From contig CALKCM010000008.1 of the NCBI GenBank assembly GCA_938086785.1, positions 71,500 to 135,499 on the forward strand: DNA of 64,000 nt, written 5' to 3'. The stretch is from an uncultured Bacteroidia bacterium. GTDB taxonomy: Bacteria > Bacteroidota > Bacteroidia > NS11-12g > UBA955. This document shows, piece after piece, positions 43,758 through 62,449 of the stretch; the stretch's first letter is position 1, and each line of letters starts with the position of its first letter. Both the position numbers and the translations under genes were made by a program. Under the pieces are notes generated by a model, which saw nothing but the letters and a program-made list of their open reading frames with translations, was not told the origin of the DNA and did not search any database.

Positions 43758-44894
43758 ATGGGAGTTTATAAACAAGGCTTTGTGTTTGCAAAGTTTAAAA
43801 AAGAGAAACAAGATCCCTTCGATCAATTGTTTACTATTTTTAAAGAGTTGATAACGCATACTTCAGGTGACTTCGATGAAGCCATCGATTGGTTGAGAGA
43901 GTTGGATAAGGAATATCAGCTTACTAGTCCAAAATACACCATTGAAGATTTCATTGAGGATCTTAAAAAACGCGGATATATTCGAGAAGAGTTTGAGGAT
44001 GGGGCGGGTGATGGTTCGGGAGATGGATCATCAATAGTCATGGCTGCTAAGCTTGAACAGGCCTTGCGAAAGAATGCTTTGGAGCAAATCTTTGGAAAAT
44101 TGAAAAAAAGTCAAAAAGGAAATCATAGCACTACTAAGGGAGGAATAAGCGATGATGCTTCGGGAGACTTTAGAGGATATGCCTTTGGAGATGCCATAGA
44201 GCAAATATCTTTAACGGAAAGTTTAAAAAGTGCTCAAATAAATAATGGTATTGGAGATTTCAATTTACAAGAACGCGATTTAGTTGTAGAAGAAACCTAC
44301 CACAAAGCTCAAATGAGTACAGTGCTCATGATTGATATTAGCCATAGTATGATTCTTTATGGGGAAGATAGGATCACGCCTGCTAAGAAAGTAGCCATGG
44401 CATTGGCAGAACTTATTACGAGCCGATACCCAAAAGATACCTTGGATGTAATTGTTTTTGGGAATGATTCATGGCCCATTAAGATTAAGGATATTCCTTA
44501 TTTAAAAGTAGGGCCCTATCACACCAACACTGTTGCAGGTTTGCAACTGGCTATGGATATATTGCGACGGAAAAGGAATTCAAATAAGCAAATATTCATG
44601 ATAACAGATGGCAAGCCGAGCTGTGTGCGCGAACAAAATGGAGAGTATTATAAGAATAGTAACGGATTAGACCCATATATAGTAGATAAATGTTATTCCA
44701 TGGCTGGGATGGCAAGGAAGATGCAAATCCCAATCACCACTTTTATGATTGCCCAAGATTATTATTTGCAACATTTTATAGAGGAGTTTACCAAGGCTAA
44801 TAAAGGGAAAGCATTTTATACTGGGATTGAAGGATTGGGTGAAATGATTCTAAGGGATTTTGAACAAAATAGAATAAAACGACTAAAAGGATAA
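43758..44894 (+). CDS. von Willebrand factor A (VWA) domain protein
   Basis: 378 aa. The MIDAS motif D-I-S-H-S lies in TVLMIDISHSM (nt 44334-44348), with ITDGKPS downstream. A Gly/Asp-rich linker reads EDGAGDGSGDGSS. The stop abuts the ATPase start with a 0-nt gap. Confidence 0.8.
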   Translation: MGVYKQGFVFAKFKKEKQDPFDQLFTIFKELITHTSGDFDEAIDWLRELDKEYQLTSPKYTIEDFIEDLKKRGYIREEFEDGAGDGSGDGSSIVMAAKLEQALRKNALEQIFGKLKKSQKGNHSTTKGGISDDASGDFRGYAFGDAIEQISLTESLKSAQINNGIGDFNLQERDLVVEETYHKAQMSTVLMIDISHSMILYGEDRITPAKKVAMALAELITSRYPKDTLDVIVFGNDSWPIKIKDIPYLKVGPYHTNTVAGLQLAMDILRRKRNSNKQIFMITDGKPSCVREQNGEYYKNSNGLDPYIVDKCYSMAGMARKMQIPITTFMIAQDYYLQHFIEEFTKANKGKAFYTGIEGLGEMILRDFEQNRIKRLKG

Positions 44895-46361
44895 ATGATT
44901 AATATAAATACACTTGGAGCTCTTAAAGCTTCAAAATACAATTCAAAAAACATTAAAGATGAATTGAGAGATAACCTCATTTCTAAGCTGCAGAATAAAG
45001 AACCATTGTTCGCAGGAGTTATAGGGTATGATAACACCGTCATTCCACAAATCAAGAGGGCTATTTTAGCGAAGCACAATATAAACCTTTTGGGTTTAAG
45101 AGGGCAAGCCAAAACAAGGATTGCAAGATCCATGGTTCAGCTCTTGGACGAATACATTCCAGTCGTTGAAGGTTCTGAACTAAATGATGATCCTTACCAA
45201 CCTCTTTCTAGATTTGCAAAAGATCGTCTTGAGGAAATGGGGGATGAAATGCCTATTACTTGGCTGCATCGTGACGAAAGATTTTTTGAGAAGCTTGCTA
45301 CTCCCGACGTAACAGTGGCTGATTTAATAGGAGATATAGATCCTATTAAAGCAAGTAATTTAAAATTATCCTATGCTGATGACCGAGTGATCCATTTTGG
45401 GATGATTCCAAGAGCCAACCGCTGTATTTTTGTGATTAATGAATTGCCTGATTTACAAGCGCGTATCCAGGTAAGTTTATTTAATATCTTGCAAGAGGGC
45501 GATTTGCAAATACGCGGATATAAACTTCGTTTACCCTTAGACGTTCAATTTGTATTTACTGCAAATCCTGAAGATTATACCAATAGAGGTAGTATTGTTA
45601 CTCCTTTGAAAGACAGGATTGGTTCACAAATTTTAACCCATTACCCCAAGGATATTGCCACAGCCAAAATTATTACTCAGCAAGAAGCCAAATTAAGTAA
45701 TAATCAAAGAGATGCTGTTTCTGTTCCTAGCATGGCTTATGATTTAATTGAAATGATTGGCTTTGAGGCAAGAAGAAGTGAATATATTGATTCAAAAAGT
45801 GGAGTGAGTGCGAGGATGAGCATAACGGCCTTAGAAAGTGCGGTAAGTACTGCTGAATTGAGAATGCTTCAGGCCGGCCGGAAATCTACACTTTTAAGAT
45901 TAAGTGACTTTGGAGGGCTTATACCTGCAATTACGGGAAAAGTAGAGTTAGTTTACGAAGGGGAGCAGGAAGGATCGGAAGAGGTTGCCCTGTTGTTAAT
46001 TTCAGATGCAACCAAGACTCTATTCAACTCATATTTTCCGAGTATACCCAAACTGCAGAGAGCAGATGAAAATGGGCCTTATACAGCATTAATTAATTGG
46101 TTTGTCGAAGGAAATCAATTGGAACTTTTGGATACAGACAGTGAAAAAGAATATAAAACAAAATTAAATTCCCTTAGTCCCTTAAATGATCTGATACAGA
46201 AGTATTGTTCTGATCAAAAAGATACGGATGAGGCATACTTTCTAAAAGAGCTTATTTTATGGGGCCTTTCGGCCTATGATAAACTTAGTCGCAAACCATA
46301 CGATGGAGGGAATCAGTTTAAGGATATTGTGGGAAATATTTTAAATGATTTACAGAGTTAG
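44895..46361 (+). CDS. AAA+ ATPase, Mg-chelatase/ComM-like, with deviant Walker motifs
   Basis: 488 aa. The Walker A-like motif is GLRGQAKT (nt 45093-45116). The Walker B-like motif is CIFVINELPDL (nt 45423-45443). FVFTANPEDY resembles sensor 1. Confidence 0.7.
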   Translation: MININTLGALKASKYNSKNIKDELRDNLISKLQNKEPLFAGVIGYDNTVIPQIKRAILAKHNINLLGLRGQAKTRIARSMVQLLDEYIPVVEGSELNDDPYQPLSRFAKDRLEEMGDEMPITWLHRDERFFEKLATPDVTVADLIGDIDPIKASNLKLSYADDRVIHFGMIPRANRCIFVINELPDLQARIQVSLFNILQEGDLQIRGYKLRLPLDVQFVFTANPEDYTNRGSIVTPLKDRIGSQILTHYPKDIATAKIITQQEAKLSNNQRDAVSVPSMAYDLIEMIGFEARRSEYIDSKSGVSARMSITALESAVSTAELRMLQAGRKSTLLRLSDFGGLIPAITGKVELVYEGEQEGSEEVALLLISDATKTLFNSYFPSIPKLQRADENGPYTALINWFVEGNQLELLDTDSEKEYKTKLNSLSPLNDLIQKYCSDQKDTDEAYFLKELILWGLSAYDKLSRKPYDGGNQFKDIVGNILNDLQS

Positions 46362-46389: not shown

Positions 46390-49300
46390 TTAATATAAAA
46401 TATAAACAACACCCACTTTCTGTCTCCAAGATTGTTTTATGGTTCTATACTTAAGTTGGTAGGTATAAACCCCCTCAGGGCAATTTTTCCCTTGAAAGGT
46501 TCCATTCCATGAGAATTTGAGGTCATCGCTTTTGAATACGATCTCACCCCAACGGTTGTATATCAGCAATTCTATTTCAGTAGGCCCATAAGTAACGATG
46601 TTAAAGGTTTCGTTCTTGTCATCCTTGTTTGGTGAGAAAACAGTAGGAGCGAATATAAGAATGGTGTCTTTATAACATATCGAACCAAAACTACTATCAA
46701 TACAACCCCCGTTATTTTCAATAACAAGTTTTATCGTATAATTACTTTTAGATCCATCATAGGTGTGTTTTGGATTATCTCCTGGTATATACGTCTCCGT
46801 ATTTCCATCGCCCCAATCCCAGGTTCCTTTGGTCCCACCAATACTTCCATCAAAAAGAAATAATTCCGGTTGAATGTTTGTTATACAAGGCAAGCTATTT
46901 GGAATATATGTAGTGAAATCAGCGCTTATGGCTTTGAATCCTGGTATATAAACATTGGTGTCCGAAGAGCATCCCGTAGCTTTATATGTTGCATTTAAAC
47001 GATAGGTATTCCCTGCATTTTCATAAATAGAATCCAGAAAACTTTTGGGGAATGTATTCCATTCAAAATTAAGTAGTGACGGATTTGGAAATTCTACTTT
47101 TGCCCATCCCTTTCTTCCAAAACAAACTGGAGCAGAGGTTTGAATATTAAAATAGGGCCTCGGATTGACTTTAATAGTCACCGTATCCTTAGCATCATTA
47201 CTGCAACCATCGCTGAGAGTTCCTGAGTACAATGTAGAAGAAAGAGGGTATACAAATGTTCCAGGGCCTGTTTGTCCGTTGCTCCATTTAACCTGATGAT
47301 CCGGAGGGTTTCCACCAGCTGTTGTAGATTTAAGCCAGACGATTTCACCCGGACAGATTTCATCAGTATCCAAGTCTATCACTATTTTAAGCGTATCCTT
47401 AACGGTTACATCTAAGTTCGCATAAGATGTACAGGTTTTCTCGATGTACTCGTATTGCAATTTGTGAGTTCCCGAACCTGCCAAATTTGGATTAAATGAA
47501 CTTCCTATAACACCAATCCCAGAAAAAGTGCCACCTATTTTTGAGGCTTCAAGGGGGAACGCCTGCGTCTTAAAACAATACTCATTTGGAGTATTGGTGA
47601 ATACAACAGATGGTTTTGCATCAACTTTTACTTTAAAGTTTGCTTCACAGCCAAAACTGTTGGTATACGTAATGGTATGGTTCCCAGCTCCTGCCGTACT
47701 TGGTCTAAATAAACCTTGCGTTTTATTTATAATTCCAGGGCCAGAAAAGCTGCCACCAGCTTCTTCCCTGTAGCAGGAGAAAACCGGAGCATTAATACAC
47801 ATAGAAGTATCAGACTGTACAATAGGCTTAGGCCTTACAAAGGCATAAAAAGTATCCGTACAGTCATTAATGTGGTAAACTAAGGCATGATATCCGTATC
47901 CCGCTGTTGAGGCCGTGAAAGTATCTTTTCCAGTAATTCCAGATCCTGTCCAAAACCCTCCACCAGTGGATGGGAATAATTTGGTGATAGCATAATTAAG
48001 AACAACCGGATTTTCTTCAAAGCAGACTTTTAACGTGTCGGTATGACTTACGCTTGTTTTTGTAACATAAACATAAGTTTGGTCCTTGCATTTTGATGAG
48101 CTTATTTCTAAAGTATCTCTATCAAAAGCATTGGTGCTATTTATATAGACGCTTGGGTCGTATTCGTTTCCAGTGGGGTTTGTAATTCCTTTTCCTTTGG
48201 TCCACGTATAGTTAGATGTTGGGATAAAACCGCTGAGTGTTTGAAGTCCTGCGCTTGGGCAGAAATAGGATACGGGTCCTGCATCAATTCCGAGAATGGT
48301 CAGGTATGTGGTGTCCTTGCATCCTCCTCCATTCCAAGTAATAAGCTTGGTTTGAGGCCCTCCCATTGCGCTGGGATTGTATCTGCCCCAATAGCTATTG
48401 GTTAGTCCAGGGAACCAAGATGGATAAATTCCTAAAGGTGAAAAAGTGAGGGTTTCACTGGTGCTATTCTCACAAGCAGTATCAAAACGAGGTACCGTTA
48501 TTTTGGTAATAACTTCAACATCTTTAGAGACGATACAACCGTTCCAATTGTAGGATAATTTATATATCCCTGCAGTGCTGTCTGGATCAAAGACTCCATT
48601 AGGAGTAGTTCTGAGTCCTGTAAAAACACCTCCTCTGGGGTAATACCACCAAAGGGCTCTGGCAGGAGTTCCTTGGCAAAACACATTGGGCAAGCTCCAT
48701 GCGCCTCTACTATTTACTTCTAAAGTATCTGCACATTTTCCTATCTGGTACCAGGCCTTTCGAACTCCTCTAAACGTTCTGGGGTTATATTCTCCTGTTG
48801 CGGGGTTCACAATTCCTGTACCACCCCAAGTTCCTCCTGGAGGACTGGCTTTAAGGAAGAAATTAGCACTGGCGTTGCAGACCATAGTATCATTTTGGGC
48901 CACGGGCGGACTTAGTACATTGACGGTAATCGTATCGGCACTTGGAATAGAAATTCCATCAGTAACTTTAAGAATATATGTTGTTTTAACATTTGGGCAT
49001 ACGGTATGGGGTCCCGCGCCTTTTATTATGGAAGGGGTCCAGGTGTAAATGTATTTTTTTGAATCTCCACCACTGACTGTTGCTATCAACTTAGTGCATG
49101 AACCTATGCAAAGCAGTGTATCGTCTAATGTCAGCTCAACGGATAGGGGACAGGTGAGTACATCAAAACGCACCAAGGAATTTCGAGTATAACTTTCACC
49201 ACAGAAATCCAACCAATTGGTGGTTAAATTAAAGGTATACCTTCCGTTTAAATTTACTGCGTTTATAAAGTTGACTGTGAAGGTTTTTGTATATCCCTTA

Positions 49301-49893
49301 ACACACCCTGTGGGAGTAATGCTAGCTATACCAAGATTCTTGGGTCCTGTTAAGCTTGCGTTTCCTAATAAAAAGGAATCACAATTAATGGCAACATTAC
49401 TGCGAATTTTAAACGATTTGTCTAAACATGCAACAGTACCTACACGAAAAAATCGTGGGGTAGGAGGTGGTATAATATCTGTACTTAAATCGGCTTCCCA
49501 ACCCGTACATGAAACACTTTTATCTGATTTGAAATGAAGGGTGATGCAACTGTCTGTACTTATAATTGTTCCTGGTCCATTTATTCCACTCCACCTTCCT
49601 AATACTGTAGAATTTGTGTCTTTCCCATCAAAAATACTAAGAATATCTTCATCTTTTTCAGTACAGAATGATGTGAATTTTAGCGTGAGATTTTTAGCTC
49701 CTGGGACGCATATAGTCATGACATGATTCTCATTATGAGCATAGTCACCTGTGGTTAATCCTTCTTCTGAATCTTTAACAGTAGCCTCACAAATTCTCAC
49801 TACTCCTGTATGCATGAGCACTTCAGGTATCTGACTTACTATTGGTTTCAGTCCAAAAACAAGTAAAAGTGATATGAGTATTTTTTTAGTCAC
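46390..49893 (-). CDS. Giant Cys-rich surface protein: CUB-like domain, repeated Ig-like modules, PKD domain, T9SS type-B (gliding motility-associated) C-terminal domain
   Basis: 1167 aa with signal peptide MTKKILISLLLVFGLKPIVSQ. Domain evidence is given in the sub-features. It is the last gene of the six-gene operon. Confidence 0.85.
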   Translation of the reverse strand: MTKKILISLLLVFGLKPIVSQIPEVLMHTGVVRICEATVKDSEEGLTTGDYAHNENHVMTICVPGAKNLTLKFTSFCTEKDEDILSIFDGKDTNSTVLGRWSGINGPGTIISTDSCITLHFKSDKSVSCTGWEADLSTDIIPPPTPRFFRVGTVACLDKSFKIRSNVAINCDSFLLGNASLTGPKNLGIASITPTGCVKGYTKTFTVNFINAVNLNGRYTFNLTTNWLDFCGESYTRNSLVRFDVLTCPLSVELTLDDTLLCIGSCTKLIATVSGGDSKKYIYTWTPSIIKGAGPHTVCPNVKTTYILKVTDGISIPSADTITVNVLSPPVAQNDTMVCNASANFFLKASPPGGTWGGTGIVNPATGEYNPRTFRGVRKAWYQIGKCADTLEVNSRGAWSLPNVFCQGTPARALWWYYPRGGVFTGLRTTPNGVFDPDSTAGIYKLSYNWNGCIVSKDVEVITKITVPRFDTACENSTSETLTFSPLGIYPSWFPGLTNSYWGRYNPSAMGGPQTKLITWNGGGCKDTTYLTILGIDAGPVSYFCPSAGLQTLSGFIPTSNYTWTKGKGITNPTGNEYDPSVYINSTNAFDRDTLEISSSKCKDQTYVYVTKTSVSHTDTLKVCFEENPVVLNYAITKLFPSTGGGFWTGSGITGKDTFTASTAGYGYHALVYHINDCTDTFYAFVRPKPIVQSDTSMCINAPVFSCYREEAGGSFSGPGIINKTQGLFRPSTAGAGNHTITYTNSFGCEANFKVKVDAKPSVVFTNTPNEYCFKTQAFPLEASKIGGTFSGIGVIGSSFNPNLAGSGTHKLQYEYIEKTCTSYANLDVTVKDTLKIVIDLDTDEICPGEIVWLKSTTAGGNPPDHQVKWSNGQTGPGTFVYPLSSTLYSGTLSDGCSNDAKDTVTIKVNPRPYFNIQTSAPVCFGRKGWAKVEFPNPSLLNFEWNTFPKSFLDSIYENAGNTYRLNATYKATGCSSDTNVYIPGFKAISADFTTYIPNSLPCITNIQPELFLFDGSIGGTKGTWDWGDGNTETYIPGDNPKHTYDGSKSNYTIKLVIENNGGCIDSSFGSICYKDTILIFAPTVFSPNKDDKNETFNIVTYGPTEIELLIYNRWGEIVFKSDDLKFSWNGTFQGKNCPEGVYTYQLKYRTIKQSWRQKVGVVYILY
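46393..46662 (-). other. T9SS type-B sorting domain (gliding motility-associated C-terminal domain)
   Basis: The last 90 aa read FAPTVFSPNKDDKNETFNIV...LLIYNRWGEIVFKS...SWNGTFQGKNCPEGVYTYQLKY. This fits the FTPNGDGxNDxF ... RWGxxVF ... WxG ... GxYxY pattern. Confidence 0.8.
46663..46929 (-). other. PKD domain
   Basis: FDGSIGGTKGTWDWGDGNTETYIPGDNPKHTYDGSKSNYTIKLVIEN fits the PKD pattern WDFGDG...H.Y...G.Y.V.L. Confidence 0.7.
49483..49806 (-). other. CUB-like domain
   Basis: Residues ~30-137: CEATV..GDYAHNENHVMTIC...LTLKFTSFCTEKDEDILSIFDG...VLGRWSG...ISTDSCITLHFKSDKSVSCTGWEA. This matches the CUB layout F..F.lE...D.l.i.DG ... l.F.SD.s....GF.a. Confidence 0.6.
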
Positions 49894-49895
49894 GT

Positions 49896-50336
49896 TTATT
49901 TTCGAATGGTAATCTCAGGAGTTCGAATACTATTGCTCCAATGACCTGCTCGATCTCTTATGCGAATATCATAGGCAGCTAATTCGGTGTTTCCTGTGCC
50001 AATAAGGAAGAGGCTTTTAAGTTCAATTTTTAACTGGCCCGAAATTTTAACATTTGCATTATCTGGGGCTAGAGGTGCTATAAAATAGTAATCGGGCTTA
50101 GGTAGCCTGCTATCTTTGATTTCCAATGATTTTTTATCTGGATCATTTTCCCCTAAATCTGCATCGCCATCGGTGTAATTAATGTAGAGATAAACGGAAT
50201 CATCAAATTCAGAAATAACTGTTTTTGTAAACCGATCAAACCCAATGCTTGGTATGGGGTCATTTGCTACTGTTTTCTTCTTACAAGAAACCGAGGATAT
50301 CATAAGTAGACAGAATATAATTCGGATCACTTTCAT
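49896..50336 (-). CDS. Small lipoprotein (hypothetical)
   Basis: 146 aa with lipobox LLMISSVSC and a possible Ca-binding-like YTDGDADLGENDPD. The gap to the upstream gene is 0 nt and to the downstream gene 2 nt. Confidence 0.6.
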   Translation of the reverse strand: MKVIRIIFCLLMISSVSCKKKTVANDPIPSIGFDRFTKTVISEFDDSVYLYINYTDGDADLGENDPDKKSLEIKDSRLPKPDYYFIAPLAPDNANVKISGQLKIELKSLFLIGTGNTELAAYDIRIRDRAGHWSNSIRTPEITIRK

Positions 50337-51269
50337 TTATTTTATCTTGATTGCAAAGTATTTTTTAAGAAAGAACATGCTATTTTCATTGGGTATATTG
50401 TAATTTAGGTTTACGCCGTCATCGCAACTCATTCTAAACCATATAACCTCTCCCGAAACATAACCAACGGTGTTAAAATTATAAGACCATTGGTGGTTAA
50501 CTGAACCCGTATATAAGCCCGGGAGGTTTTGGCCTGGGGACTTTGTTAACGGCTCAAACGTAGCTTGGCTATAATCATCAGGATTAATGGACCACATTAT
50601 TTTCATATTTGAAAGTTGGTCTTGACTTAATTTGTCGTCGGTTAAAGAGAACCACAAGGTTAGGTTGATATTTGCATCAACCAAAATAGGTTCATATTTG
50701 CCTCCTCTATTTTGCAATACTCCACCATTTCGGGCATTTACTCCCAATATTTGGGGTGGAAAATCAGCAGCGGTCCTTGTGTTTCCATCTAAGTCAGGAG
50801 CTCCTGCATTAATCCAATCTTTTATATTTTGGATATGTTTGTCCTTGTGGATGGGATAATCATTATCTGGATTAACGATCAATGGCATAATTCCAGAGTT
50901 TCCGCCTAAATCAACGGTCATTCTGTGGATTAACATGCTGGCATCAGCATTGCCTGGAACGACTCTATATTCAAAAGTTTGTAAGGGGTCTGGTTTAATA
51001 GGTGCCTGATTTATTAAGGTATTAAAACTACTTTCAGCTGTTCTGAAATCAGGTTCAAAGGTTCCATCATGGCAGCCGCTATTGGCACAGGTCTTAATAA
51101 AAATATTTTTGTGAATTCCTTCCAAGGAGGTGGCACTTGGCTCTGTTCCTCTAAAAGTATCAATGTCTCGGATAATGTTATCATAGGGGTTGTTTACCAC
51201 ACCTGTGGTTTTACTGCAAGAAATGATTGTTGTTGCAACAGCCGCAATAATAAAAAGTGCTTTTTTCAT
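50337..51269 (-). CDS. Lipoprotein with PSCyt1-like (planctomycete cytochrome c-like) segment and CX4CH motif
   Basis: 310 aa with lipobox VATTIISC. CANSGCH lies at nt 51069-51089. It is followed by RVVPGNADASMLIHRM...GIMPL...IQNIKDWINAGAPD. Confidence 0.6.
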   Translation of the reverse strand: MKKALFIIAAVATTIISCSKTTGVVNNPYDNIIRDIDTFRGTEPSATSLEGIHKNIFIKTCANSGCHDGTFEPDFRTAESSFNTLINQAPIKPDPLQTFEYRVVPGNADASMLIHRMTVDLGGNSGIMPLIVNPDNDYPIHKDKHIQNIKDWINAGAPDLDGNTRTAADFPPQILGVNARNGGVLQNRGGKYEPILVDANINLTLWFSLTDDKLSQDQLSNMKIMWSINPDDYSQATFEPLTKSPGQNLPGLYTGSVNHQWSYNFNTVGYVSGEVIWFRMSCDDGVNLNYNIPNENSMFFLKKYFAIKIK

Positions 51270-51275
51270 AATTGC

Positions 51276-52619
51276 TTAGATCCTTTCAAATAGTGATTTT
51301 CCCATGGGGTCTACGAGTCCCGCATTTTTAACATCGTCCCACACTCCAAAAATATCCGCAATAGTAGGAACAATATCAGTGAGTCTTCCAACAGGGTTGG
51401 CTTCGTTTCCAACAGACATCCCTTGCGGTACATTTTTTCCAACCATTAAGGACCAAACCCTTTGGGCGTTTCGATCGGAGTGATCAAAGGCATACCAATC
51501 ATTTTGATCTAATATTGGATTTGGATTAAGATTTCTTCCGCATTCTGGAGCAACTAACATAATTGTATTTCCAGCCATTTCTGGTATTTGAGTTTGTATA
51601 TAATTCCATAGCCAACCTGTTGCATGATCTGCGCGATGCAGATTTTTAAGGTAACCCGTGAAATTTGAATGGCAGGTGTCTACGCCGGTTAAATTAACCG
51701 TAAGAATTTTCGGTTTGAAATATTTAAGCACCTCCGCTCCATACGAAATATTAAATGCATCTCCACTTCCAACGGGAGGAGAGGCAATTTGCCCTGAACT
51801 TTGCTTGGCATATATGTATTTGATAAACTCTTTTATTCGGGTCTTATCTTCGTCTGTATTTGTAATGGTATTTATTTCATCTTGACCTAAACCAAAGGAC
51901 TTATCTAAGAAATTTTTCATGAAATACATGGGTCCTAATTCCTCTTGGCTGTATGTTTTGCTATTGCCTAAAACCTCTCTACCATAGGAACCAAATACAA
52001 CACCAGGAACAAACATATTTGCTCCATATTGCAACCCGTAATCTGGGTGATCGCTTGAATTTAGAAGGTTGTAACTATTGGTCAAAGAGCTACTAATCAT
52101 CCAACAATCTGTTGCAGAAAAGCCTGCATGTCTTCTTAAATATTCAAATATAGTAGGGTAGTTTGGTCTTACTTTTAACCCTTGTGCTGCGCTTCTATTT
52201 CCTGTCACTAAAACAGTTTGACCGGTATAATGGCCAGCACTTTGGGCAGCCACTTCTCTAAAGACTGTTCCCTGGCTTTCTAATGAGCTTCCTAAAAGTT
52301 GAGGGATCGGCACACTACCTGCGGTTCCGCCTCCAGCTGGATCCGTTCCATATACGATTTTTTTCGTTGGTGCTGGGCCGTCAAATAGATTGAACATAAC
52401 ATTTCCTGCGGCTCCAGAAACTCCTTGAGAATCCTCAAGGTATCGTTGTAGTATACTTTCTTGTTGACGAACTCCTCCAGCAAACATTACTAAAACAACG
52501 TGTTCTGCCTTGGGTACTCCTCCTCTGGCAAACAAGCTTCCTGATGGGAGTATGTAGGGCAAAGCTGCTCCTCCAGCCACCCCTAATCCTGCTTTTTGTA
52601 AAAATTCTTTTCTTCTCAT
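51276..52619 (-). CDS. DUF1501 family protein (sulfatase/alkaline phosphatase-like fold) with twin-arginine signal
   Basis: 447 aa. The Tat signal is MRRKEFLQKAGLGVAGGAALP. HVVLVMFAGGVRQQE and APECGRNLNPN...DHSDRN follow, a layout typical of DUF1501 as I recall it. Confidence 0.7.
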   Translation of the reverse strand: MRRKEFLQKAGLGVAGGAALPYILPSGSLFARGGVPKAEHVVLVMFAGGVRQQESILQRYLEDSQGVSGAAGNVMFNLFDGPAPTKKIVYGTDPAGGGTAGSVPIPQLLGSSLESQGTVFREVAAQSAGHYTGQTVLVTGNRSAAQGLKVRPNYPTIFEYLRRHAGFSATDCWMISSSLTNSYNLLNSSDHPDYGLQYGANMFVPGVVFGSYGREVLGNSKTYSQEELGPMYFMKNFLDKSFGLGQDEINTITNTDEDKTRIKEFIKYIYAKQSSGQIASPPVGSGDAFNISYGAEVLKYFKPKILTVNLTGVDTCHSNFTGYLKNLHRADHATGWLWNYIQTQIPEMAGNTIMLVAPECGRNLNPNPILDQNDWYAFDHSDRNAQRVWSLMVGKNVPQGMSVGNEANPVGRLTDIVPTIADIFGVWDDVKNAGLVDPMGKSLFERI

Positions 52620-52620
52620 C

Positions 52621-53118
52621 TTAGTAATATTGATACTCGTTACACACTGACATGGCTGTAAAAACCATTTCTACACTCACTTTGGCATTTCCTCCAATAT
52701 AATTTTTGAAAAACAACTTCTCGGCTTCATTGGGATATCTTAGAAAAAATTTCTTGTAGGAATTTTCAACAAAGGCATCTATATCATTTCGCATATCTGC
52801 ATCAGAAGGAATAATAACTTGCCCTGTATTAAAATAATTACTGAGTAACATTTCATTTGCTACAGACCTATCGCCAATACTCACCAAAACAGTTTGGGTT
52901 TTAAATAATTGATTAGGAGATATTGGTTTTTGATATAGGTTTGTATAGAGGATAGAAATGTATTCAGCCTCAGACTTATTTTTTATCTTACTTGTTCTTT
53001 CATCCTGAATTAATTGTTCAGCAACTCCAAACTCGGCGACCTTTTCTTTTTTACAGCCCAACGAAAGAGCCATAAATCCTAGAATTAAAATTTTATTTAA
53101 ATTGTGCATACTCATCAC
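52621..53118 (-). CDS. Lipoprotein with two DUF1549/DUF4214-like motif copies
   Basis: 165 aa with lipobox FMALSLGC. The motif copies are YISILYTNLYQKPISPNQL...LLSNYF and FVENSYKKFFLRYPNEAEKLF...VCNEYQYY. It overlaps the upstream gene by 26 nt. Confidence 0.6.
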   Translation of the reverse strand: MMSMHNLNKILILGFMALSLGCKKEKVAEFGVAEQLIQDERTSKIKNKSEAEYISILYTNLYQKPISPNQLFKTQTVLVSIGDRSVANEMLLSNYFNTGQVIIPSDADMRNDIDAFVENSYKKFFLRYPNEAEKLFFKNYIGGNAKVSVEMVFTAMSVCNEYQYY

Positions 53119-54010
53119 TTATACAAATTGGTAATTGTACATCCTGTAGTTGTTCACTTTGTCTGTACGTTTTATAAATATCAGCTACCTCACTCGTTCC
53201 GGCATCTCTTCTAAGAAGAATATAATACATCCAGCGAATTTGTGCTTCGTAGAACTCATTGGCTTTTGTTAGTACGGAGCAATACTCTGTTTTATTACTC
53301 GCCCAGCTATTGAAAAGTTTTGTAGGTACATTCTTGTCAATGATTTCGATGCCTTCTAAAAGCTCTGACCCACTTGGATTTCTATTTAATACGTCATCAT
53401 AGGAGGCATTTACAAAATTGAAACTATTCATATTAATCTGATCATAGATGTTATTATCGAGCATTGCTACACACATTGCACTATAATCAATTACACCTGT
53501 CCTAAGCCTATATTTACTCAAAGTAACTTTTCTAATTTTATTGATGGCATCAAGAGACTGAAAAACGCGGACGGAGTCTCCTTCAAGACGAGCTATTTTA
53601 AGAGAGAACGATAAGTTCCCTACAATTCTATTAAACTCGCCATCATCTGCACCATCTACAAAGCGTGCTTTACTTAAATTATAAATTCGCTCGTGCCAAG
53701 CATGCATATAGCTACTATCGCCCTCTCGATATTCAGTACTGTATTGCAGCGTTTTAATTAGATTTTTTCGAGTATTTGTATCTAAATCGTTATTGATTAG
53801 GGAATCTGTAAAAAGATTGCGTTCAACATTGGTAGCCTCCCTTCCCAGGAGGTCTATGTAAAGTCTATTTACATAATTCTCAACAATAATAGTTGGCACT
53901 CCGCTGTAATCAGGGGGAATGTTTCCATCTACTTTTACTTGATCTTGCTTTGTACAACTGGCAGCAGTTATTGCTGTCAGCAGTGTGATTCCAAAATAGA
54001 GTTTATTCAT
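53093..54010 (-). CDS. Lipoprotein with three DUF1549/DUF4214-like motif copies
   Basis: 305 aa with lipobox LTAITAASC. The motif copies are YVNRLYIDLLGREATNVERNLF...LQYSTEY, FVNASYDDVLNRNPSGSELL...ANEFYEA and WMYYILLRRDAGTSEVADIY...ISDEYAQF. Confidence 0.6.
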   Translation of the reverse strand: MNKLYFGITLLTAITAASCTKQDQVKVDGNIPPDYSGVPTIIVENYVNRLYIDLLGREATNVERNLFTDSLINNDLDTNTRKNLIKTLQYSTEYREGDSSYMHAWHERIYNLSKARFVDGADDGEFNRIVGNLSFSLKIARLEGDSVRVFQSLDAINKIRKVTLSKYRLRTGVIDYSAMCVAMLDNNIYDQINMNSFNFVNASYDDVLNRNPSGSELLEGIEIIDKNVPTKLFNSWASNKTEYCSVLTKANEFYEAQIRWMYYILLRRDAGTSEVADIYKTYRQSEQLQDVQLPICISDEYAQFK

Positions 54011-54227
54011 TCAGTTTTAACAATGGTGTTGATACCTACGTACAAAAGGTGTTCCTTTTAACCTATATCTAAGGTTTAAAGTTACAATAAAATACTTAAA
54101 ATATCAACTTTTATATACTCCTTCAAGTTTAAAATACTGTATATTAATACTTTGTGTTGTTATCTTTCGTTTAGATAAATGTTGATTTTTTTTGTCAAAT
54201 TATGTTGATTACCCGTTCTATATACAC

Positions 54228-54264
54228 AAAAAAAGGCGCCTTTTGGGAAAAGGCACCTTTTTGT
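54228..54264 (-). terminator. Rho-independent terminator after the tandem OMP genes
   Basis: 14-bp stem 54231-54244 / 54248-54261 (aaaaggcgcctttt / aaaaggcacctttt, one mismatch) with loop ggg. A/T runs lie on both sides. It is 19 nt past the stop at 54283. Confidence 0.65.
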
Positions 54265-54282
54265 ATTAAGTGAAACTTCTTT

Positions 54283-54870
54283 TTAAAACTTAAAGGAAAG
54301 ACCTCCTTGTACAATTGATTTTGCAAAGCCTATTTCAGCATATAGCCCAATGTTCTCGCTGAAAAAGTAGCGAGCTCCCAAAGTAGATTCTAGTCCAATT
54401 GGAATTGGGTTTGAAAAGGATACATTTGAATCGTCTGGATCATTGGTAGTCCATTTGCTTGTAGATGTTCCATATCCTACTCCAACTCCCCAGAAAGCAT
54501 CAAATGTTTCCGAACTGAAAAAGTGAATATTTACTCTTGCATTAAACTTAGTGCTACTGAATTTTAACTTGTAATCATAGTTATAAAAATCCTTATAACT
54601 AATGCTGGATGCAACATGATTAATGCTTAACCCTAAGCCAATTCGATCTGATACAGCATGTTCATATTTTAAATGAATGGGACCATAGCCTTTAAGAGCA
54701 TAGTCGTTTTCATCTTCATAGACTTTAAAGAGTGTCTTATTAAGGTTAGGAGCGCCATAGCCGGCCGAAATAATGTTACTTCCAGTCTCAAATGCTTGAG
54801 CTTTAAGGGATGATTTTTGTGTTAGTGCGAAAGCAAATAACACAGCTGATGGTATAATATATTTTTTCAT
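54283..54870 (-). CDS. Outer-membrane beta-barrel protein (OmpW/OMP_b-brl-like), paralogue 2
   Basis: 195 aa with a signal peptide ending KAQA, alternating beta-strand pattern and C-terminal GGLSFKF. It is clearly paralogous to the upstream gene. Confidence 0.75.
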   Translation of the reverse strand: MKKYIIPSAVLFAFALTQKSSLKAQAFETGSNIISAGYGAPNLNKTLFKVYEDENDYALKGYGPIHLKYEHAVSDRIGLGLSINHVASSISYKDFYNYDYKLKFSSTKFNARVNIHFFSSETFDAFWGVGVGYGTSTSKWTTNDPDDSNVSFSNPIPIGLESTLGARYFFSENIGLYAEIGFAKSIVQGGLSFKF

Positions 54871-54896: not shown

Positions 54897-55487
54897 CTAG
54901 TACAACTGAAATACAATTCCTGCTTGAGCTAAGGATTGTGCAAAACCCACTTCACCGTAGATTCCAACGTGTTGCGAAAAATAGTACCTGGCACCAAGCG
55001 TAAACTCAGCGCCTATTGGAATAAACCCACTTACTTTGGTTTCTATAAAATTAGTATCAGTAGAGGACCATGTCGCAGAGGTTGAGTTATATCCCAGTCC
55101 TATTCCAACATAAGGGTCAAATTTAGTAGAGTTTCCAAAGTGTAAATTCACTCTGGCATTAATATCTAAACTGGTATAGTTAAGACTGTTTACATCTGTA
55201 ACGTCCCAAATGCTTTGATTGTATGACATTACATTGTTAGACAGGTTCGCGTTTATTCCAATTTCAATATTGTCACTGGCTGCAAAACCGTATTTAGCAT
55301 GGTAAGCTCCAAAGCCTGTAACCTTATAATTATCAAAATTTTTGTAGATTGAAAAGGCTAAAGAATTTAAAGTTGGGGCTCCGTAACCGAAGGAAAAGTT
55401 GTGGTCTCCTTTTTCGTAGGACTGCGATTTTACGGATACGAATGGAAGCAATAGTAGGTTTAGTACCATTAGGTATTTAATTTTCAT
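54897..55487 (-). CDS. Outer-membrane beta-barrel protein (OmpW/OMP_b-brl-like), paralogue 1
   Basis: 196 aa with a signal peptide ending VKSQ and C-terminal AGIVFQLY. Blocks shared with the paralogue include GYGAP.LN, NARVN.HF, G.G.GY..S and PIG.E.TLGARY.FS...G.Y.E.GFA. Confidence 0.75.
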   Translation of the reverse strand: MKIKYLMVLNLLLLPFVSVKSQSYEKGDHNFSFGYGAPTLNSLAFSIYKNFDNYKVTGFGAYHAKYGFAASDNIEIGINANLSNNVMSYNQSIWDVTDVNSLNYTSLDINARVNLHFGNSTKFDPYVGIGLGYNSTSATWSSTDTNFIETKVSGFIPIGAEFTLGARYYFSQHVGIYGEVGFAQSLAQAGIVFQLY

Positions 55488-59029: not shown

Positions 59030-62000
59030 TTAGAATAAATACCTTACCTCAGCGCGACCAATATGAACCCACTTGCTGGTTTGGCTTTTTCGGGCTTCAT
59101 AGCCACTTATAACTTGGATGTTTTTGCTTGGGTTAAACCTTAGGTTAAATTGACTTCTAAAATTGTTCCCAACTGAAAAGCCTTGCAGTATATCAAAAGC
59201 TAATGGAGTATTAGGAGTTTGATTATATTCATTTTTTATATAGCTAAATTGAATATCAGCTAGTCCTCCTTTGCCAATACTTTTGGCTGTGATAATTTTC
59301 CCTTCAATTTGTTTCCCATAATTGTTTCCCGCATTTTGAAAAGTGGTGTAGAGCAATTCACTTTTAATTCTAAACTGTATACCGGGTTGCCAAGATATCG
59401 AAGGAGCCAGTGTAATGGAGTTGTATTGGTATGAATTATTTGGAATGAATTCACTGCTATACTCAGATTGTCTAAATCGGGTACTCTGTACTATTTGCCA
59501 TTGGGCATTTGGCGCTATGCGAATAATGGTTTGGGTTTCACGATTACTTCTGCTATCGAAACCATTAGTTAAGAAAACCTTACTCTGTCTCAATAGCCCT
59601 GTTTGTTGAATAAATAGCACGCTGTTTTTGGATTCAAACTCGGTTTGATTTCGTATAAAATATTGCCCGTTGATGGTGTTGGTGTCTTTTAAAGTGTTTA
59701 GATACGGCATGATCTTTTCGAGAAAATCAGTGGAAATAGTTTTGGCTTTTAAATTAAAAGTAAATGTATTTTTTACTTTAAATGCGTTCTTTTTTTCTGG
59801 CTTCTGAATGGAGAAATTTCCATTGAGTTCGCTGGCTTGGGAAGTAATATACTGGCCAGTGGGAATAAGAAGTCGCACAAATTTGGCTTGGTCTTGAAAG
59901 GGGCTTTGTTCAAATTCATTGATTTCTCGTATTCCATTTCCATTGTAATCTTGCCAAGAGTAAAAGCCTTGGCCTGCAGGAACTTCAAAATAGGCAAATT
60001 GCCTCTGTTGCTCCCGGCCACTGATGGTTTGATAGTAGGTATTAAATCGAACAAAGCTCTTCTTTGGAAAAAAATTGTATTCAACCCTCGAGGATAAATG
60101 ACTTTCAGAGGAAAATTGATTGCTGAACTGAGAGTCTAGCAGTTTTGATTCACGAAATGAAAAATTCCAAAATAAACTCGATGTTTTTTTATTTCTGCGC
60201 ATGTAAGCCGAGTAATTATTAGCCGCATTTGCTCGAATAAATGATTCCCCTTGAGGGATATAGCTTAAACGGTTTTGATACGTTCCTCCGACCTGTGTTT
60301 TGCCAAAAAGCATGGAACTATTTAATTCTAGAGCATCAAAGCCATAACTGCCCAAAGAATACATTTGTGTAGGAGTCTTCGTTTTACTTCTTTCTTCTTT
60401 GAGTACAAAGGAGTGGTCTTGAGTTTTATTTTTGAAGCCCAAGGTATTTTGCCTTAAGGAAAATGTTCTTTTTTGTGCTTTGCTTTCATTTTTTTGTATT
60501 GATGGTTCTATGTAGAATGACCGCAATGAATAGCGAAGGTTTCCCTTGAAATCAATAATTTGATCGTTGTTTATATTAAATAGAGCTGCTGTACTACTCA
60601 TTTTAAGCTTTTCTTTCTTTTCTAAGGTAGTACTATAAATAGAGGAGTATACAGGATTGTTTACCAGTGTTGAGCTTTCGTTGTTTAACGTTTTGTTCCA
60701 ATTTCGACTCACCTCTAAATCTCTAAATCGCTCTATGCTTTTAAAATGTTGTGAGCTATAATCAGCCACAAGTTGATGATTCCAACTCCAAGGGTTCGTC
60801 GTATCTCTGCCTAATTGGTGTCTATGGTTCAGTGTTATTTTTCCTGCCCATCCCGTATTGTCATTATCATTTAGAGCGCTAAAAGTATTTAAGTCTTGAC
60901 GGCTTCCAGATAGTTGAGCATGAACGCTAGAATTAGTCCTAAAATTGTATTTTAGACCTGTTTCTGTCATCTGTATTGCATTTGGTGCAAATATTTGAAC
61001 AATGGGCTCGTAGCTCCCAGATGGATTCCCACCTATGGGTGCTACGTATTTATAAACTTTTCCGTTTGCACTGGTTCCGTCTAAAATATAATTTCCTTTA
61101 CCAGGTCCTAGGTAATTGAATATCACATTGTAGAAATCGGTATAATTTCCAGGAATATCTACATATAAATAGATCAATTTTCCCAATGAATCAGCCAATA
61201 CATAGTTTGGTGCATTTGAACTAAACCCCTCCAAAAGGGTTGCTCCATTTAGTCCAGCTGTTTGAAAATTATCGCCTGACTGCGCTAAGATTTCCTTCGC
61301 AGTTAACATTTGAGTCGAATCAAATAGGTCTAAACTTTGTTGTATCGGTTGATTTTTCAAGTCATTTTCTGAGTATAGGCCTATATAAGTAACAAGTTTA
61401 TTTGTTTGATAACTATAGTTTCCACTAGCTATTGTTCTAGCAAAAAAGCGATCAGAGTATTGGAACTCAACGATAATTCGGCTGAAAGTATTAATTAAAT
61501 TTTTAGGCGTAAAAGTCACTTCACCCAAATTGTAATCAATAGTGTAATCCGCTTGCAATCCTCTTTGCATTTTCTTACCATCTAAATATACATTTTCTGT
61601 TCCTGATATGACAATTATGAATTGTTCATTTCTGGTGCCTGTAAGTTTATAAGGCCCCTGCAAACCTTCCGTTCCAGTTATTTCATTTCGGGAGAATCGA
61701 CCTCTTGCCAAGGCTGCGTCAATTTCTGCACGATGTGTGCCATGTTCCTTTTCTGAGGTCATCCTCCATTGCAATCCGCGATTCTTTTTAGTGTATTTCA
61801 TGAACGCAAAGTGCTTTGGATTTTGAAATGCATGATCTCCTAAAATAATCTCACTCTTGGGTAAATAGAATTTCAAATAAATGCGATCAAAATCTTGTAA
61901 TGTGGATGTCGTTCCTTCCGGTTGAAATGGAAATTCTTGATCTGTAATTGCTCCCTCAATCGATATTTTATCACTTACTTTACCATTTAGCCTCAGGTTT

Positions 62001-62449
62001 AGGGCAGAATTGAGAACCAAATCCTGTGAATTGCCAAAACTAATCCCACGACTAAGTATACCTACAGATTGGATATTGGATGCTTGGCTATTGTAGCTGT
62101 TTGATTGATTATAAAGGGGAGCATTGGACTGACCCGAGACAAAAAGAATGTTATTTGATCGAGTTTCAAAGGCCATGGGATTGAAACGCCTGTACTTTAT
62201 GGAAGCTATTTGGGTCAAATAACTCGAATCAAACCTAAGAGTGGTATTGCCATCTATTAAAAAATAATCTATGTTTGGTGTAAGGACTTGAGAATCAATT
62301 TGAATTTCCAAGCTAAGCGCATCAATGGAGAAACTATCTAAGGGCAGAATAGTCCTGGAAATGAGGATTTTTTTTCGCTGATTTAATTGGGCATGAACAC
62401 TTCCTAAGATGCATAAAGAGAGAATACATGCGATCCAATATCTGATCAT
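59030..62449 (-). CDS. Large predicted outer-membrane protein (1139 aa, beta-barrel-like C-terminal region)
   Basis: Signal peptide MIRYWIACILSLCILGSVHAQ. The sequence is Asn/Ser/Tyr/Gln-rich with an alternating pattern and ends in the beta-signal-like RAEVRYLF. It starts 2 nt after the histidine kinase stop. Confidence 0.6.
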   Translation of the reverse strand: MIRYWIACILSLCILGSVHAQLNQRKKILISRTILPLDSFSIDALSLEIQIDSQVLTPNIDYFLIDGNTTLRFDSSYLTQIASIKYRRFNPMAFETRSNNILFVSGQSNAPLYNQSNSYNSQASNIQSVGILSRGISFGNSQDLVLNSALNLRLNGKVSDKISIEGAITDQEFPFQPEGTTSTLQDFDRIYLKFYLPKSEIILGDHAFQNPKHFAFMKYTKKNRGLQWRMTSEKEHGTHRAEIDAALARGRFSRNEITGTEGLQGPYKLTGTRNEQFIIVISGTENVYLDGKKMQRGLQADYTIDYNLGEVTFTPKNLINTFSRIIVEFQYSDRFFARTIASGNYSYQTNKLVTYIGLYSENDLKNQPIQQSLDLFDSTQMLTAKEILAQSGDNFQTAGLNGATLLEGFSSNAPNYVLADSLGKLIYLYVDIPGNYTDFYNVIFNYLGPGKGNYILDGTSANGKVYKYVAPIGGNPSGSYEPIVQIFAPNAIQMTETGLKYNFRTNSSVHAQLSGSRQDLNTFSALNDNDNTGWAGKITLNHRHQLGRDTTNPWSWNHQLVADYSSQHFKSIERFRDLEVSRNWNKTLNNESSTLVNNPVYSSIYSTTLEKKEKLKMSSTAALFNINNDQIIDFKGNLRYSLRSFYIEPSIQKNESKAQKRTFSLRQNTLGFKNKTQDHSFVLKEERSKTKTPTQMYSLGSYGFDALELNSSMLFGKTQVGGTYQNRLSYIPQGESFIRANAANNYSAYMRRNKKTSSLFWNFSFRESKLLDSQFSNQFSSESHLSSRVEYNFFPKKSFVRFNTYYQTISGREQQRQFAYFEVPAGQGFYSWQDYNGNGIREINEFEQSPFQDQAKFVRLLIPTGQYITSQASELNGNFSIQKPEKKNAFKVKNTFTFNLKAKTISTDFLEKIMPYLNTLKDTNTINGQYFIRNQTEFESKNSVLFIQQTGLLRQSKVFLTNGFDSRSNRETQTIIRIAPNAQWQIVQSTRFRQSEYSSEFIPNNSYQYNSITLAPSISWQPGIQFRIKSELLYTTFQNAGNNYGKQIEGKIITAKSIGKGGLADIQFSYIKNEYNQTPNTPLAFDILQGFSVGNNFRSQFNLRFNPSKNIQVISGYEARKSQTSKWVHIGRAEVRYLF

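Follow-up and report, generated by a model that had tools for sequence, protein, structure and literature searches.

A conserved six-gene operon of uncultured aquatic Bacteroidia encoding a DUF1501-like protein, four predicted lipoproteins and a type IX secretion cargo

We describe a six-gene operon, g1–g6, on the minus strand of contig CALKCM010000008.1 from an uncultured member of the Bacteroidia. It resembles a remote, divided relative of the already known DUF1501/PSCyt type of gene cluster, strongly constrained and equipped with a surface-exposed component of the type IX secretion system (T9SS). The analyzed window, that is, the whole stretch of DNA under study, comprises 64 kb, and all coordinates are positions within it unless another locus is named. 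The genes encode an alkaline-phosphatase-superfamily protein (g3), four lipoproteins (g1, g2, g4 and g5) and a large T9SS cargo (g6). On balance, we consider it probable that g1–g6 are transcribed together and, in uncultured aquatic Bacteroidia, form an independent module of the cell envelope with a DUF1501/PSCyt-like design.

Modules combining DUF1501 (PF07394) with PSCyt1/PSCyt2/PSD1 proteins (PF07635, PF07583 and PF07587) have been described as chiefly a trait of the PVC group (Planctomycetota, Verrucomicrobiota and Lentisphaerota), with DUF1501 present in few Bacteroidetes. Among the examples are clusters of four genes with Big_2, WD40 and PPC-like proteins, and the modules feature twin-arginine translocation (Tat) motifs and a suspected role in electron transfer (Kamneva et al. 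2012, PMC3542564). There is also precedent for accessory immunoglobulin (Ig), PPC or CBM domains (PMC3542564, PMC5615132). These modules are abundant in Planctomycetota and Verrucomicrobiota. No function has been assigned to them since they were first described (PMC3542564, PMC5615132), and according to He et al. (2017, PMC5615132) nothing is known of what they do. The operon reported here adds a cryptic relative, missed by Pfam and NCBIfam and fixed in hundreds of species of uncultured Bacteroidia from aquatic habitats. Our literature search found no prior description of the six-gene arrangement, in agreement with an initial, sequence-only annotation of the window that had considered it undescribed.

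Operon structure and conservation across Bacteroidia

The ORF listing places six minus-strand open reading frames (ORFs) at 46390–54010 (Table 1), with junctions of −26, +1, +6, 0 and +2 nt. These values, already given in the initial annotation, were confirmed, with a likelier alternative for a single start codon: because g2 orthologues begin 'MNMHN', translation of g2 more likely starts at ATG 53115, which gives a first overlap of −23 instead of −26 nt. Across orthologous loci, the median junctions are −20, 9, −1, −1 and 2 nt. Such overlapping or abutting junctions, found here and in about 60–80 other species, support the earlier proposal of one transcription unit. Its boundaries were also as first described, consisting upstream of a terminator-like hairpin and a 272-bp AT-rich spacer and downstream of a convergent gene (44895–46361, plus strand) that stops 28 nt from the g6 stop codon. 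A sigma-70 scan of the leader returned 23 sites versus 27.7 expected, not above chance, and allowed no confident promoter call; by eye, no exact Bacteroidetes TAnnTTTG box was seen in the leader (54011–54282).

Table 1 Features of the g1–g6 operon and its boundaries.
Feature	Position	Strand	Size	Description
g1	53093–54010	−	305 aa	Lipoprotein (Cys19), at least three DUF4214/PBS-linker-like helical motifs
g2	52621–53118	−	165 aa from GTG 53118; 164 aa from ATG 53115	Lipoprotein, DUF4214-like motifs
g3	51276–52619	−	447 aa	Alkaline-phosphatase-superfamily protein, Tat-like N-terminus
g3, residues 1–32	52524–52619	−		Tat-like n-region R-R-K-E-F-L-Q-K, Gly/Ala-rich h-region, 'PYILPSGRLFA'
g4	50337–51269	−	310 aa	Lipoprotein (Cys18), PSCyt1-like helical domain and C-terminal Ig-like beta-sandwich
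g4, residues 45–165	50775–51137	−		Cytochrome-c-like/PSCyt1-like domain (from invariant columns and hhalign)
g5	49896–50336	−	146 aa	Lipoprotein (Cys18), unannotated family
g6	46390–49893	−	1167 aa	Sec signal, CUB, Cys-framed repeats, PKD-like, T9SS type-B C-terminal domain
g6 CUB	49492–49749	−		40.2 bits versus cut-off 21.4
g6 PKD-like domain	46693–46833	−		Sub-threshold PKD_4 match
g6 T9SS type-B C-terminal domain	46399–46650	−		TIGR04131, 48.2 bits versus cut-off 35
Leader	54011–54282	−	272 bp	AT-rich (~32% GC), non-coding, presumed promoter region
Upstream boundary	54230–54262	−	15 pairs, 5 G-C pairs	Intrinsic-terminator-like hairpin and T-run closing the outer-membrane-protein genes

A scan using one genome per GTDB species identified 509 species encoding a g3 relative, and the best 80 of these 509 carriers formed our synteny set. 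All 80 are metagenome-assembled genomes (MAGs) of uncultured Bacteroidia from lakes, rivers and seas, with no cultured organism among them. The carriers are freshwater and marine plankton, and the Lake Mendota series supplied many of their MAGs. As assessed by tblastn with the six window proteins, gene order and strand were kept in all 80 loci as far as the contigs reach, with a single exception (L032), and the flanking genes varied among loci. Conservation of the gene order across these species-representative loci, a check and possible refutation proposed with the initial annotation, clearly favors the finding. More than 1297 cluster-level homologues of g3 (57–99% identity) were detected, all of them unnamed proteins from Bacteroidota MAGs, along with ~1189 of g4; the two families thus match in size, and they share contigs. 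Cross-species identity drops from g3 (57–70%) to g6 (34–53%), with protein lengths maintained.

A divergent cluster (L097, 2187–5472) contains g2-like, g3-like (42% identity), g4-like (172 aa) and g5-like genes. Its g4-like product is the cytochrome-like domain alone with CANAGCH retained, its g3-like protein has PEHGRD where g3 has PECGRN, no g1 lies upstream and the contig stops short of where a g6 would lie. This gene set points to a core of a DUF4214 lipoprotein, the g3 enzyme, a cytochrome-like lipoprotein and a small lipoprotein. Still more distant g3 relatives occur alone, in other contexts.

Irregular gene calls were seen at two loci. In L032 (2763–4182), the g4 match is shortened and runs into a g6 fragment, with g5 undetected, an apparent deletion or misassembly. 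In L001 (GCA_038141325.1; 11598–12274 and 12803–16191), g4 is called as 89 + 136 aa and g6 as 362 + 767 aa, which suggests frameshifts, assembly errors or pseudogenization.

g3 belongs to the alkaline phosphatase superfamily and resembles DUF1501

An AlphaFold2 (AF2) model of g3, based on a 22-sequence alignment (pLDDT 75, pTM 0.81), was compared to the PDB using Foldseek and matched sulfatases, LtaS, alkaline phosphatase and phosphonate monoester hydrolases, with E values down to 9e-8 and TM-scores of 0.35–0.45. The g3 sequence on its own gave no match to PDB sequences. An exhaustive profile search with g3 yielded 833 representatives, and a profile of 60 full-length relatives matched NPP (1.3e-8) and sulfatases (2.5e-8) among PDB sequences. 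Together, the fold and profile matches place g3 securely in the alkaline phosphatase superfamily, in a family of its own.

Like NPP, S1 sulfatases and LtaS/EptA, g3 has the core alpha/beta fold and the D-x-x-H and C-terminal His metal-ligand positions. Unlike these enzymes, it carries Gly instead of the first metal Asp, and a His occupies the position of the Thr, Ser or formylglycine nucleophile. Specifically, alignment to NPP places G48 at the first metal Asp, H130 at the position of the Thr90 nucleophile and E359-C360 at Asp257-His258, and the first two replacements are general in the family (Gly in 54/60 relatives, His in 53/60). Both substitutions make a classical phosphatase or sulfatase role for g3 unlikely. 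Departures from the classical superfamily are also apparent in 'E-C-G-R' for 'D-H-G' and in the low TM-scores.

For comparison to DUF1501, real members were retrieved from Anatilimnocola, a metagenome and plasmids of Singulisphaera, Chondrinema, Sphingomonas, Acidisarcina and Thermus, and nine of them served as references. These genes were located by tblastn with a 43-aa motif peptide, which was used as bait only, and all comparisons were performed with the retrieved genes as annotated by PGAP or Pfam. The broad g3 family aligned to the nine DUF1501 proteins over the C-terminal third with an hhalign probability of 97.9% (E 6e-13), the reference profiles being thin (nine sequences for DUF1501 and three for PSCyt) and without a negative-control family. 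Broad alignments were needed here, since hhalign did not succeed with g3 and one DUF1501 protein as single sequences. In a global alignment, H130 of g3 falls on the conserved DUF1501 His.

The g3 signature reads G48-G49-x-R51-x-x-E54, H130, D314-x-x-H317, E359-C360-G-R-N and D379-H380, and G48, G49, R51, E/D54, H130, D314, H317, E/D359, G361, R362 and H380 are conserved in 60 distant representatives. The DUF1501 motifs that we set against this signature were read off the nine retrieved sequences rather than taken from a list curated by Pfam. After strand 1, G-G-x-R-x-x-E (GG-V-R-Q-Q-E) in g3 corresponds to G-G-x-S/D-x-x-D/N in DUF1501; G-H-Y (H130) corresponds to N-x-H or R-S-H, L-T-G-V-D-T-C-H to L-T-G-F-D-T-H (members generally have (W/F)-D-x-H) and P-E-C-G-R-N ... 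F-D-H to E-F-G-R ... G-x-D-H. The motif set shared with PVC DUF1501 proteins is GG-x-x-x-x-acidic, His, D-x(1,2)-H, E-x-G-R and D-H, while g3 differs from them in having Cys316 and Cys360 beside metal-ligand positions (E-C-G-R versus E-F-G-R). A metal center formed by E54, H130, D314, H317, E359, C360 and H380 is plausible. The motif pattern favors DUF1501, and we regard g3 as DUF1501-like without filing it in PF07394. When g3 and a relative were searched against plasmids by tblastn, only generic genes annotated as 'sulfatase-like' or 'alkaline phosphatase family' were returned, in uninformative contexts.

The twin-arginine signal initially assigned to g3 holds only loosely. The protein starts with MRRKEFLQK; in register with its orthologues (consensus M-[NK]-R-[RK]-[DEQ]-F-[FIV]-x-K), this corresponds to R3-K4 with one more R in front. 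All 87 sequences compared have R3; at position 4, 44 of them carry R and 43 carry K. The wider g3 family mostly has R-R (R in 40, K in 10). Pfam TAT_signal matched 4/60 relatives but not g3 itself. For a signal peptide, residues 21–31 (PYILPSGRLFA) vary unusually little, and AF2 confidence is low over residues 1–32. A Tat-type leader was likely ancestral in the family, while Tat export of the g3 encoded in the window is uncertain. Several public gene calls of near-identical g3 proteins begin 13 codons later (434 aa) and lose the Tat-like leader; we favor the 447-aa start because the M-x-R-[RK]-x-F N-terminus is conserved across orthologues.

g4 combines a PSCyt1-like domain with a beta-sandwich

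In hhalign comparisons, the N-domain of g4 aligned to real PSCyt1 domains with probabilities of 86.6% (E 4.5e-6), 83.2% (8.8e-6) and 88.9% (2.4e-6), using thin templates of one to three sequences from PSCyt1-PSCyt2-PSD1 proteins of Singulisphaera, Anatilimnocola and a metagenome. The domain contains an invariant C61-A-N-S-G-C66-H67 motif (CX4CH; encoded at 51069–51089) within 'TCANSGCHDGxFEPDFRT', as well as 'VVPGNAxxSML', 'NSGIMP' with invariant M128-P129 and then a C-terminal 'WINxGA' helix. On the basis of the alignments, we regard the N-domain as PSCyt1-like without filing it in PF07635, and the CX4CH motif, M128-P129 and the helical topology suggest that g4 may bind heme. A weak match to the diheme cytochrome model TIGR03806 (0.005) was also recorded. 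Comparison to Pseudomonas aeruginosa cytochrome c551 by hhalign was not significant for g4 and likewise for real PSCyt1, and is hence uninformative.

In the AF2 model of g4 (pLDDT 80), a small N-domain made of helices precedes a beta-sandwich at the C-terminus (residues ~170–310). Searched as a whole with Foldseek, only the beta-sandwich produced matches, which were weak (best E 4e-3), and no PDB sequence matched g4 either alone or as a profile.

g1 and g2 share a DUF4214-type helical motif

g1 matched the Pfam model DUF4214 (PF13946) with 29.8 bits versus a cut-off of 23.2, and g2 fell just under the same cut-off (3e-4, 21.2 bits). Among 75 g1 orthologues, 49 matched DUF4214, 31 PBS_linker_poly, 27 PSCyt2 and 13 PSD1, with the PSCyt2 and PSD1 matches being sub-threshold (best E 9e-4); DUF4214 was also matched by 36/55 g2 orthologues. 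That these four models catch the same short helix motif suggests one shared underlying motif or repeat. An 'LxR.Pt..E' helical motif is common to PSCyt2, PSD1 and DUF4214. Internal-repeat comparison and inspection by eye identified at least three motif copies in g1 (approximately residues 44–94, 198–229 and 255–294), and about two are present in g2 (approximately residues 51–78 and 113–146). The five DUF1549/DUF4214-like copies counted initially agree with this number and are of the DUF4214 type, the likeness to DUF1549 being at the motif level only.

Lipoprotein signals, g5 and the g6 surface protein

All four proteins recognized initially from their lipoboxes were upheld as probable lipoproteins. 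The lipobox Cys of g1, g2, g4 and g5 is invariant or at least 90% conserved (invariant for Cys19 of g1), that of g2 being Cys21 when counted from ATG 53115 and Cys22 from GTG 53118, and 52–67 of about 75–82 orthologues show a lipobox-like pattern by motif reading. In Bacteroidota, lipoproteins are marked for export by an acidic stretch after the lipidated Cys. None of the four proteins contains such a stretch, positions +2 to +4 being mostly K, T or S, and we therefore expect that all four probably face the periplasm. g5 features a conserved acidic motif, 'Y-x-D-G-D-G-D-L-G', and presumably folds into a small domain rich in beta structure; it is not significantly related to g6 or to the C-domain of g4.

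The last gene, g6, was borne out as a CUB/PKD-type T9SS type-B cargo with a Sec signal. CUB, TIGR04131 and CHU_C (PF13585; 64.3 bits versus 27, residues 1082–1165 of 1167) all exceed their cut-offs, with PKD_4 below its own. Between the terminal domains, ~900 aa consist of Cys-framed internal repeats with a strong repeat signal. The protein contains 36 Cys, most of which are at least 95% conserved, and its most conserved parts include CUB and residues 281–360. Orthologues measure 1135–1181 aa and are always encoded by the last gene, with a partial match in L032. Like T9SS type-B proteins of the SprB/RemA class, g6 combines a Sec signal with a large, repetitive Ig/PKD-like body and a C-terminal sorting domain. 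It differs from that class in its N-terminal CUB domain, its strict conservation of length and Cys, its obligate linkage to five genes for periplasmic proteins and the lack of an adjacent PorP/SprF-like gene. No such partner gene was found among the window neighbors or in the flanks of L001, L002 and L005.

Relationship to DUF1501 modules of other bacteria

Several features connect the operon to the PVC modules. g3 shares with DUF1501 an alkaline-phosphatase fold, a possible Tat-type leader and the motif set described above, a protein with a PSCyt1-type domain is encoded adjacent to it, and both systems include accessory beta domains (Ig, PPC or CBM-like). The differences are equally concrete. 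Whereas PVC bacteria encode a single partner of 800–1000 aa, separate lipoproteins are present here and the PSCyt2/PSD1 body is absent. Neither g3 nor g4 is recognized by the Pfam models, the heme-type motif reads CX4CH, the carriers belong to the Bacteroidota and the unit includes a gene for a T9SS type-B surface protein. PVC genomes contain many DUF1501-type clusters versus one copy within this 64-kb window, a count that applies to the window and not to the genome.

A number of results weigh against a DUF1501/PSCyt-like design. For g3, hmmscan returned no Pfam or NCBIfam match even at E ≤ 1. Among its 60 full-length relatives, Pfam matches were distributed over Phosphodiest (18), Sulfatase (16), Metalloenzyme (9) and DUF1501 (8), and the relatives listed individually were sub-threshold for DUF1501, mostly with 12–22 bits versus a gathering threshold of 27 (best E among the 60, 1.1e-6). 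By HMMER, the g3 family scored 10–37 bits to DUF1501 and ~37 bits to NPP and sulfatases, and is no nearer to DUF1501. For g4, no Pfam or NCBIfam match was obtained at E ≤ 1, none of 78 orthologues matched PSCyt1 (PF07635), and its motif, CX4CH instead of CXXCH, is offset from the CYQCH of PSCyt1 in the hhalign alignment. Cytochromes were also absent among the PDB sequence and fold matches of g4, with Foldseek run on the whole model and the N-domain not searched as a separate fold. g5 likewise had no Pfam or NCBIfam match at E ≤ 1, nor did its profile match the PDB. For g1 and g2, the PSCyt2 matches cover only positions 20–71 of 209 of the hidden Markov model and the PSD1 matches 218–238 of 244, amounting to one helical motif of ~50 aa, and neither protein exceeded 10% hhalign probability against a whole PVC PSCyt protein. 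The even split between R and K at position 4 of the g3 leader and the thin hhalign references belong on the same side.

These results qualify several expectations of the initial annotation. Among the anticipated hmmscan matches, DUF4214 on g1 and the CUB and T9SS C-terminal domains on g6 materialized, with none for g3 or g4. The DUF1501 layout of g3 is retained by virtue of fold, motifs and hhalign, without the expected Pfam match and with HMMER scores no nearer to DUF1501. For the PSCyt1-like segment of g4, hhalign is supportive, and the PF07635 match and the CXXCH motif are missing. Lastly, the operon had been viewed as a split version of the big PVC partner. Given the motif-level likeness of g1 and g2 and the uncertain Tat signal, we regard this as a reasonable evolutionary analogy, not as demonstrated orthology.

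DUF1800 + DUF1501 pairs, as found in Sphingomonas, Thermus, Acidisarcina and on a Chondrinema litorale plasmid, offer a second comparison. In these pairs, similarly, the gene for a helical partner is followed directly by one for a DUF1501-type enzyme bearing a Tat leader, and their 'TTL-TGFDTH' block closely resembles 'VNL-TGVDTCH' of g3. Unlike g1–g6, these pairs come without a cytochrome-like protein, small lipoproteins or T9SS cargo. DUF1800 (PF08811) was considered as a counterpart of g1 and g2, which have no detectable relation to it, and was rejected (hhalign probability ≤1% for g1, g2 and g4).

Proposed function and alternative explanations

In the cell-envelope module that we propose, g3 would form the core as a periplasmic metalloenzyme, the closest thing Bacteroidia have to DUF1501. 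The lipoproteins g1, g2, g4 and g5 would assemble in the periplasm and tether or organize g3 at the membrane face. The g4 domain might pass electrons to or from the altered metal center of g3 or simply dock g3, and g6, disulfide-rich and exported by the T9SS, may serve as an outward-facing partner that binds a ligand or substrate. Such a design would parallel PVC DUF1501 with PSCyt1/PSCyt2/PSD1, several small lipoproteins standing in for the large partner protein.

Extending this proposal, g3 could be an alkaline-phosphatase scaffold turned into a redox or otherwise non-hydrolytic metalloenzyme, served by a CX4CH lipoprotein cytochrome and wired to a T9SS surface receptor. This idea is based on the His that replaces the nucleophile and on Cys316 and Cys360 flanking ligand positions, and we offer it as a speculation with a low chance of being correct. 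If true, the operon, compact and seen once in the window, would represent the whole DUF1501/PSCyt superfamily in its simplest natural form and could reveal the role of those PVC genes.

A different view would make g6 the focus of the operon, with g1–g5 acting as a cargo-specific accessory system that matures, modifies or anchors g6 around type IX export and with g3 as a transferase like LtaS, EptA or OpgB, leaving no catabolic or redox module. The constant last position of g6, its conserved length and 36-Cys framework, the lack of a PorP/SprF-like partner encoded nearby for its type-B C-terminal domain and the LtaS-type transferases among the top g3 fold matches would all fit. However, g3 has His130 and lacks the Thr nucleophile of LtaS/EptA as well as a membrane-anchor domain, and PVC DUF1501 modules occur without any T9SS. 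Overall, we judge an accessory role of this kind unlikely.

We also consider it rather improbable that the operon serves nutrient scavenging in oligotrophic water, with g3 cleaving organic esters in the periplasm as a phosphatase, phosphodiesterase or sulfatase, the lipoproteins and g6 as substrate-binding proteins and no redox chemistry. The superfamily fold, the NPP and sulfatase profile matches, the plasmid relatives annotated as sulfatase-like or alkaline phosphatase family and the planktonic freshwater and marine origin of the carrier MAGs are in line with such a function. Yet, with Gly for the metal Asp and His for the nucleophile in nearly all relatives, the classical covalent mechanism is unavailable. 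Moreover, neither TonB/SusCD uptake genes nor Pho-type neighbors were present in the window and inspected loci, where flanks vary, and 57–70% identity across species leaves g3 unusually constrained for a scavenging enzyme.

Mere adjacency, that is, a conserved but functionally heterogeneous string of genes in which the DUF1501/PSCyt1 likeness is superfamily-level noise, would be consistent with the sub-threshold status of all g3 and g4 family-level assignments in curated libraries but is very improbable considering that 80 species retain the gene order, the strand and the translationally coupled junctions amid unrelated flanks, that the g3 and g4 families match in size and share contigs and that a g2-g3-g4N-g5 core, g4N denoting the g4 N-domain, persists at 42% g3 identity.

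For the favored DUF1501/PSCyt-like module, concrete mutation targets are H130, D314/H317 and E359/C360 of g3 and C61/C66/H67/M128 of g4. As modular small proteins, its components should be easier to express and dissect than the 800–1000-aa PVC fusions. Three of the six families (g3, g4 and g5) are without annotation, two of which (g3 and g4) have more than 1000 cluster-level members each.

Genes surrounding the operon

The window neighbors comprise permeases and a carboxyltransferase, both unrelated to the operon, as well as small outer-membrane-protein barrels and VWA/AAA genes. Scans of the window for Rfam families and tRNAs returned neither. Upstream of the leader, two tandem paralogous OMP_b-brl beta-barrel genes (54283–54870 and 54897–55487, minus strand; 195 and 196 aa) end in a strong terminator. 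This pair is not located beside the operon in the inspected loci L001, L002 and L005 and is, therefore, probably unrelated to it. Further along, a 1139-aa ORF (59030–62449, minus strand) without a Pfam match at E ≤ 0.001 is immediately adjoined by a 466-aa ORF (62452–63852, minus strand). On the other side, convergent with g6, a VWA-domain gene abuts an AAA_5/Mg-chelatase-like ATPase gene with a 0-nt gap (43758–46361, plus strand), a typical VWA-MoxR-type pair.

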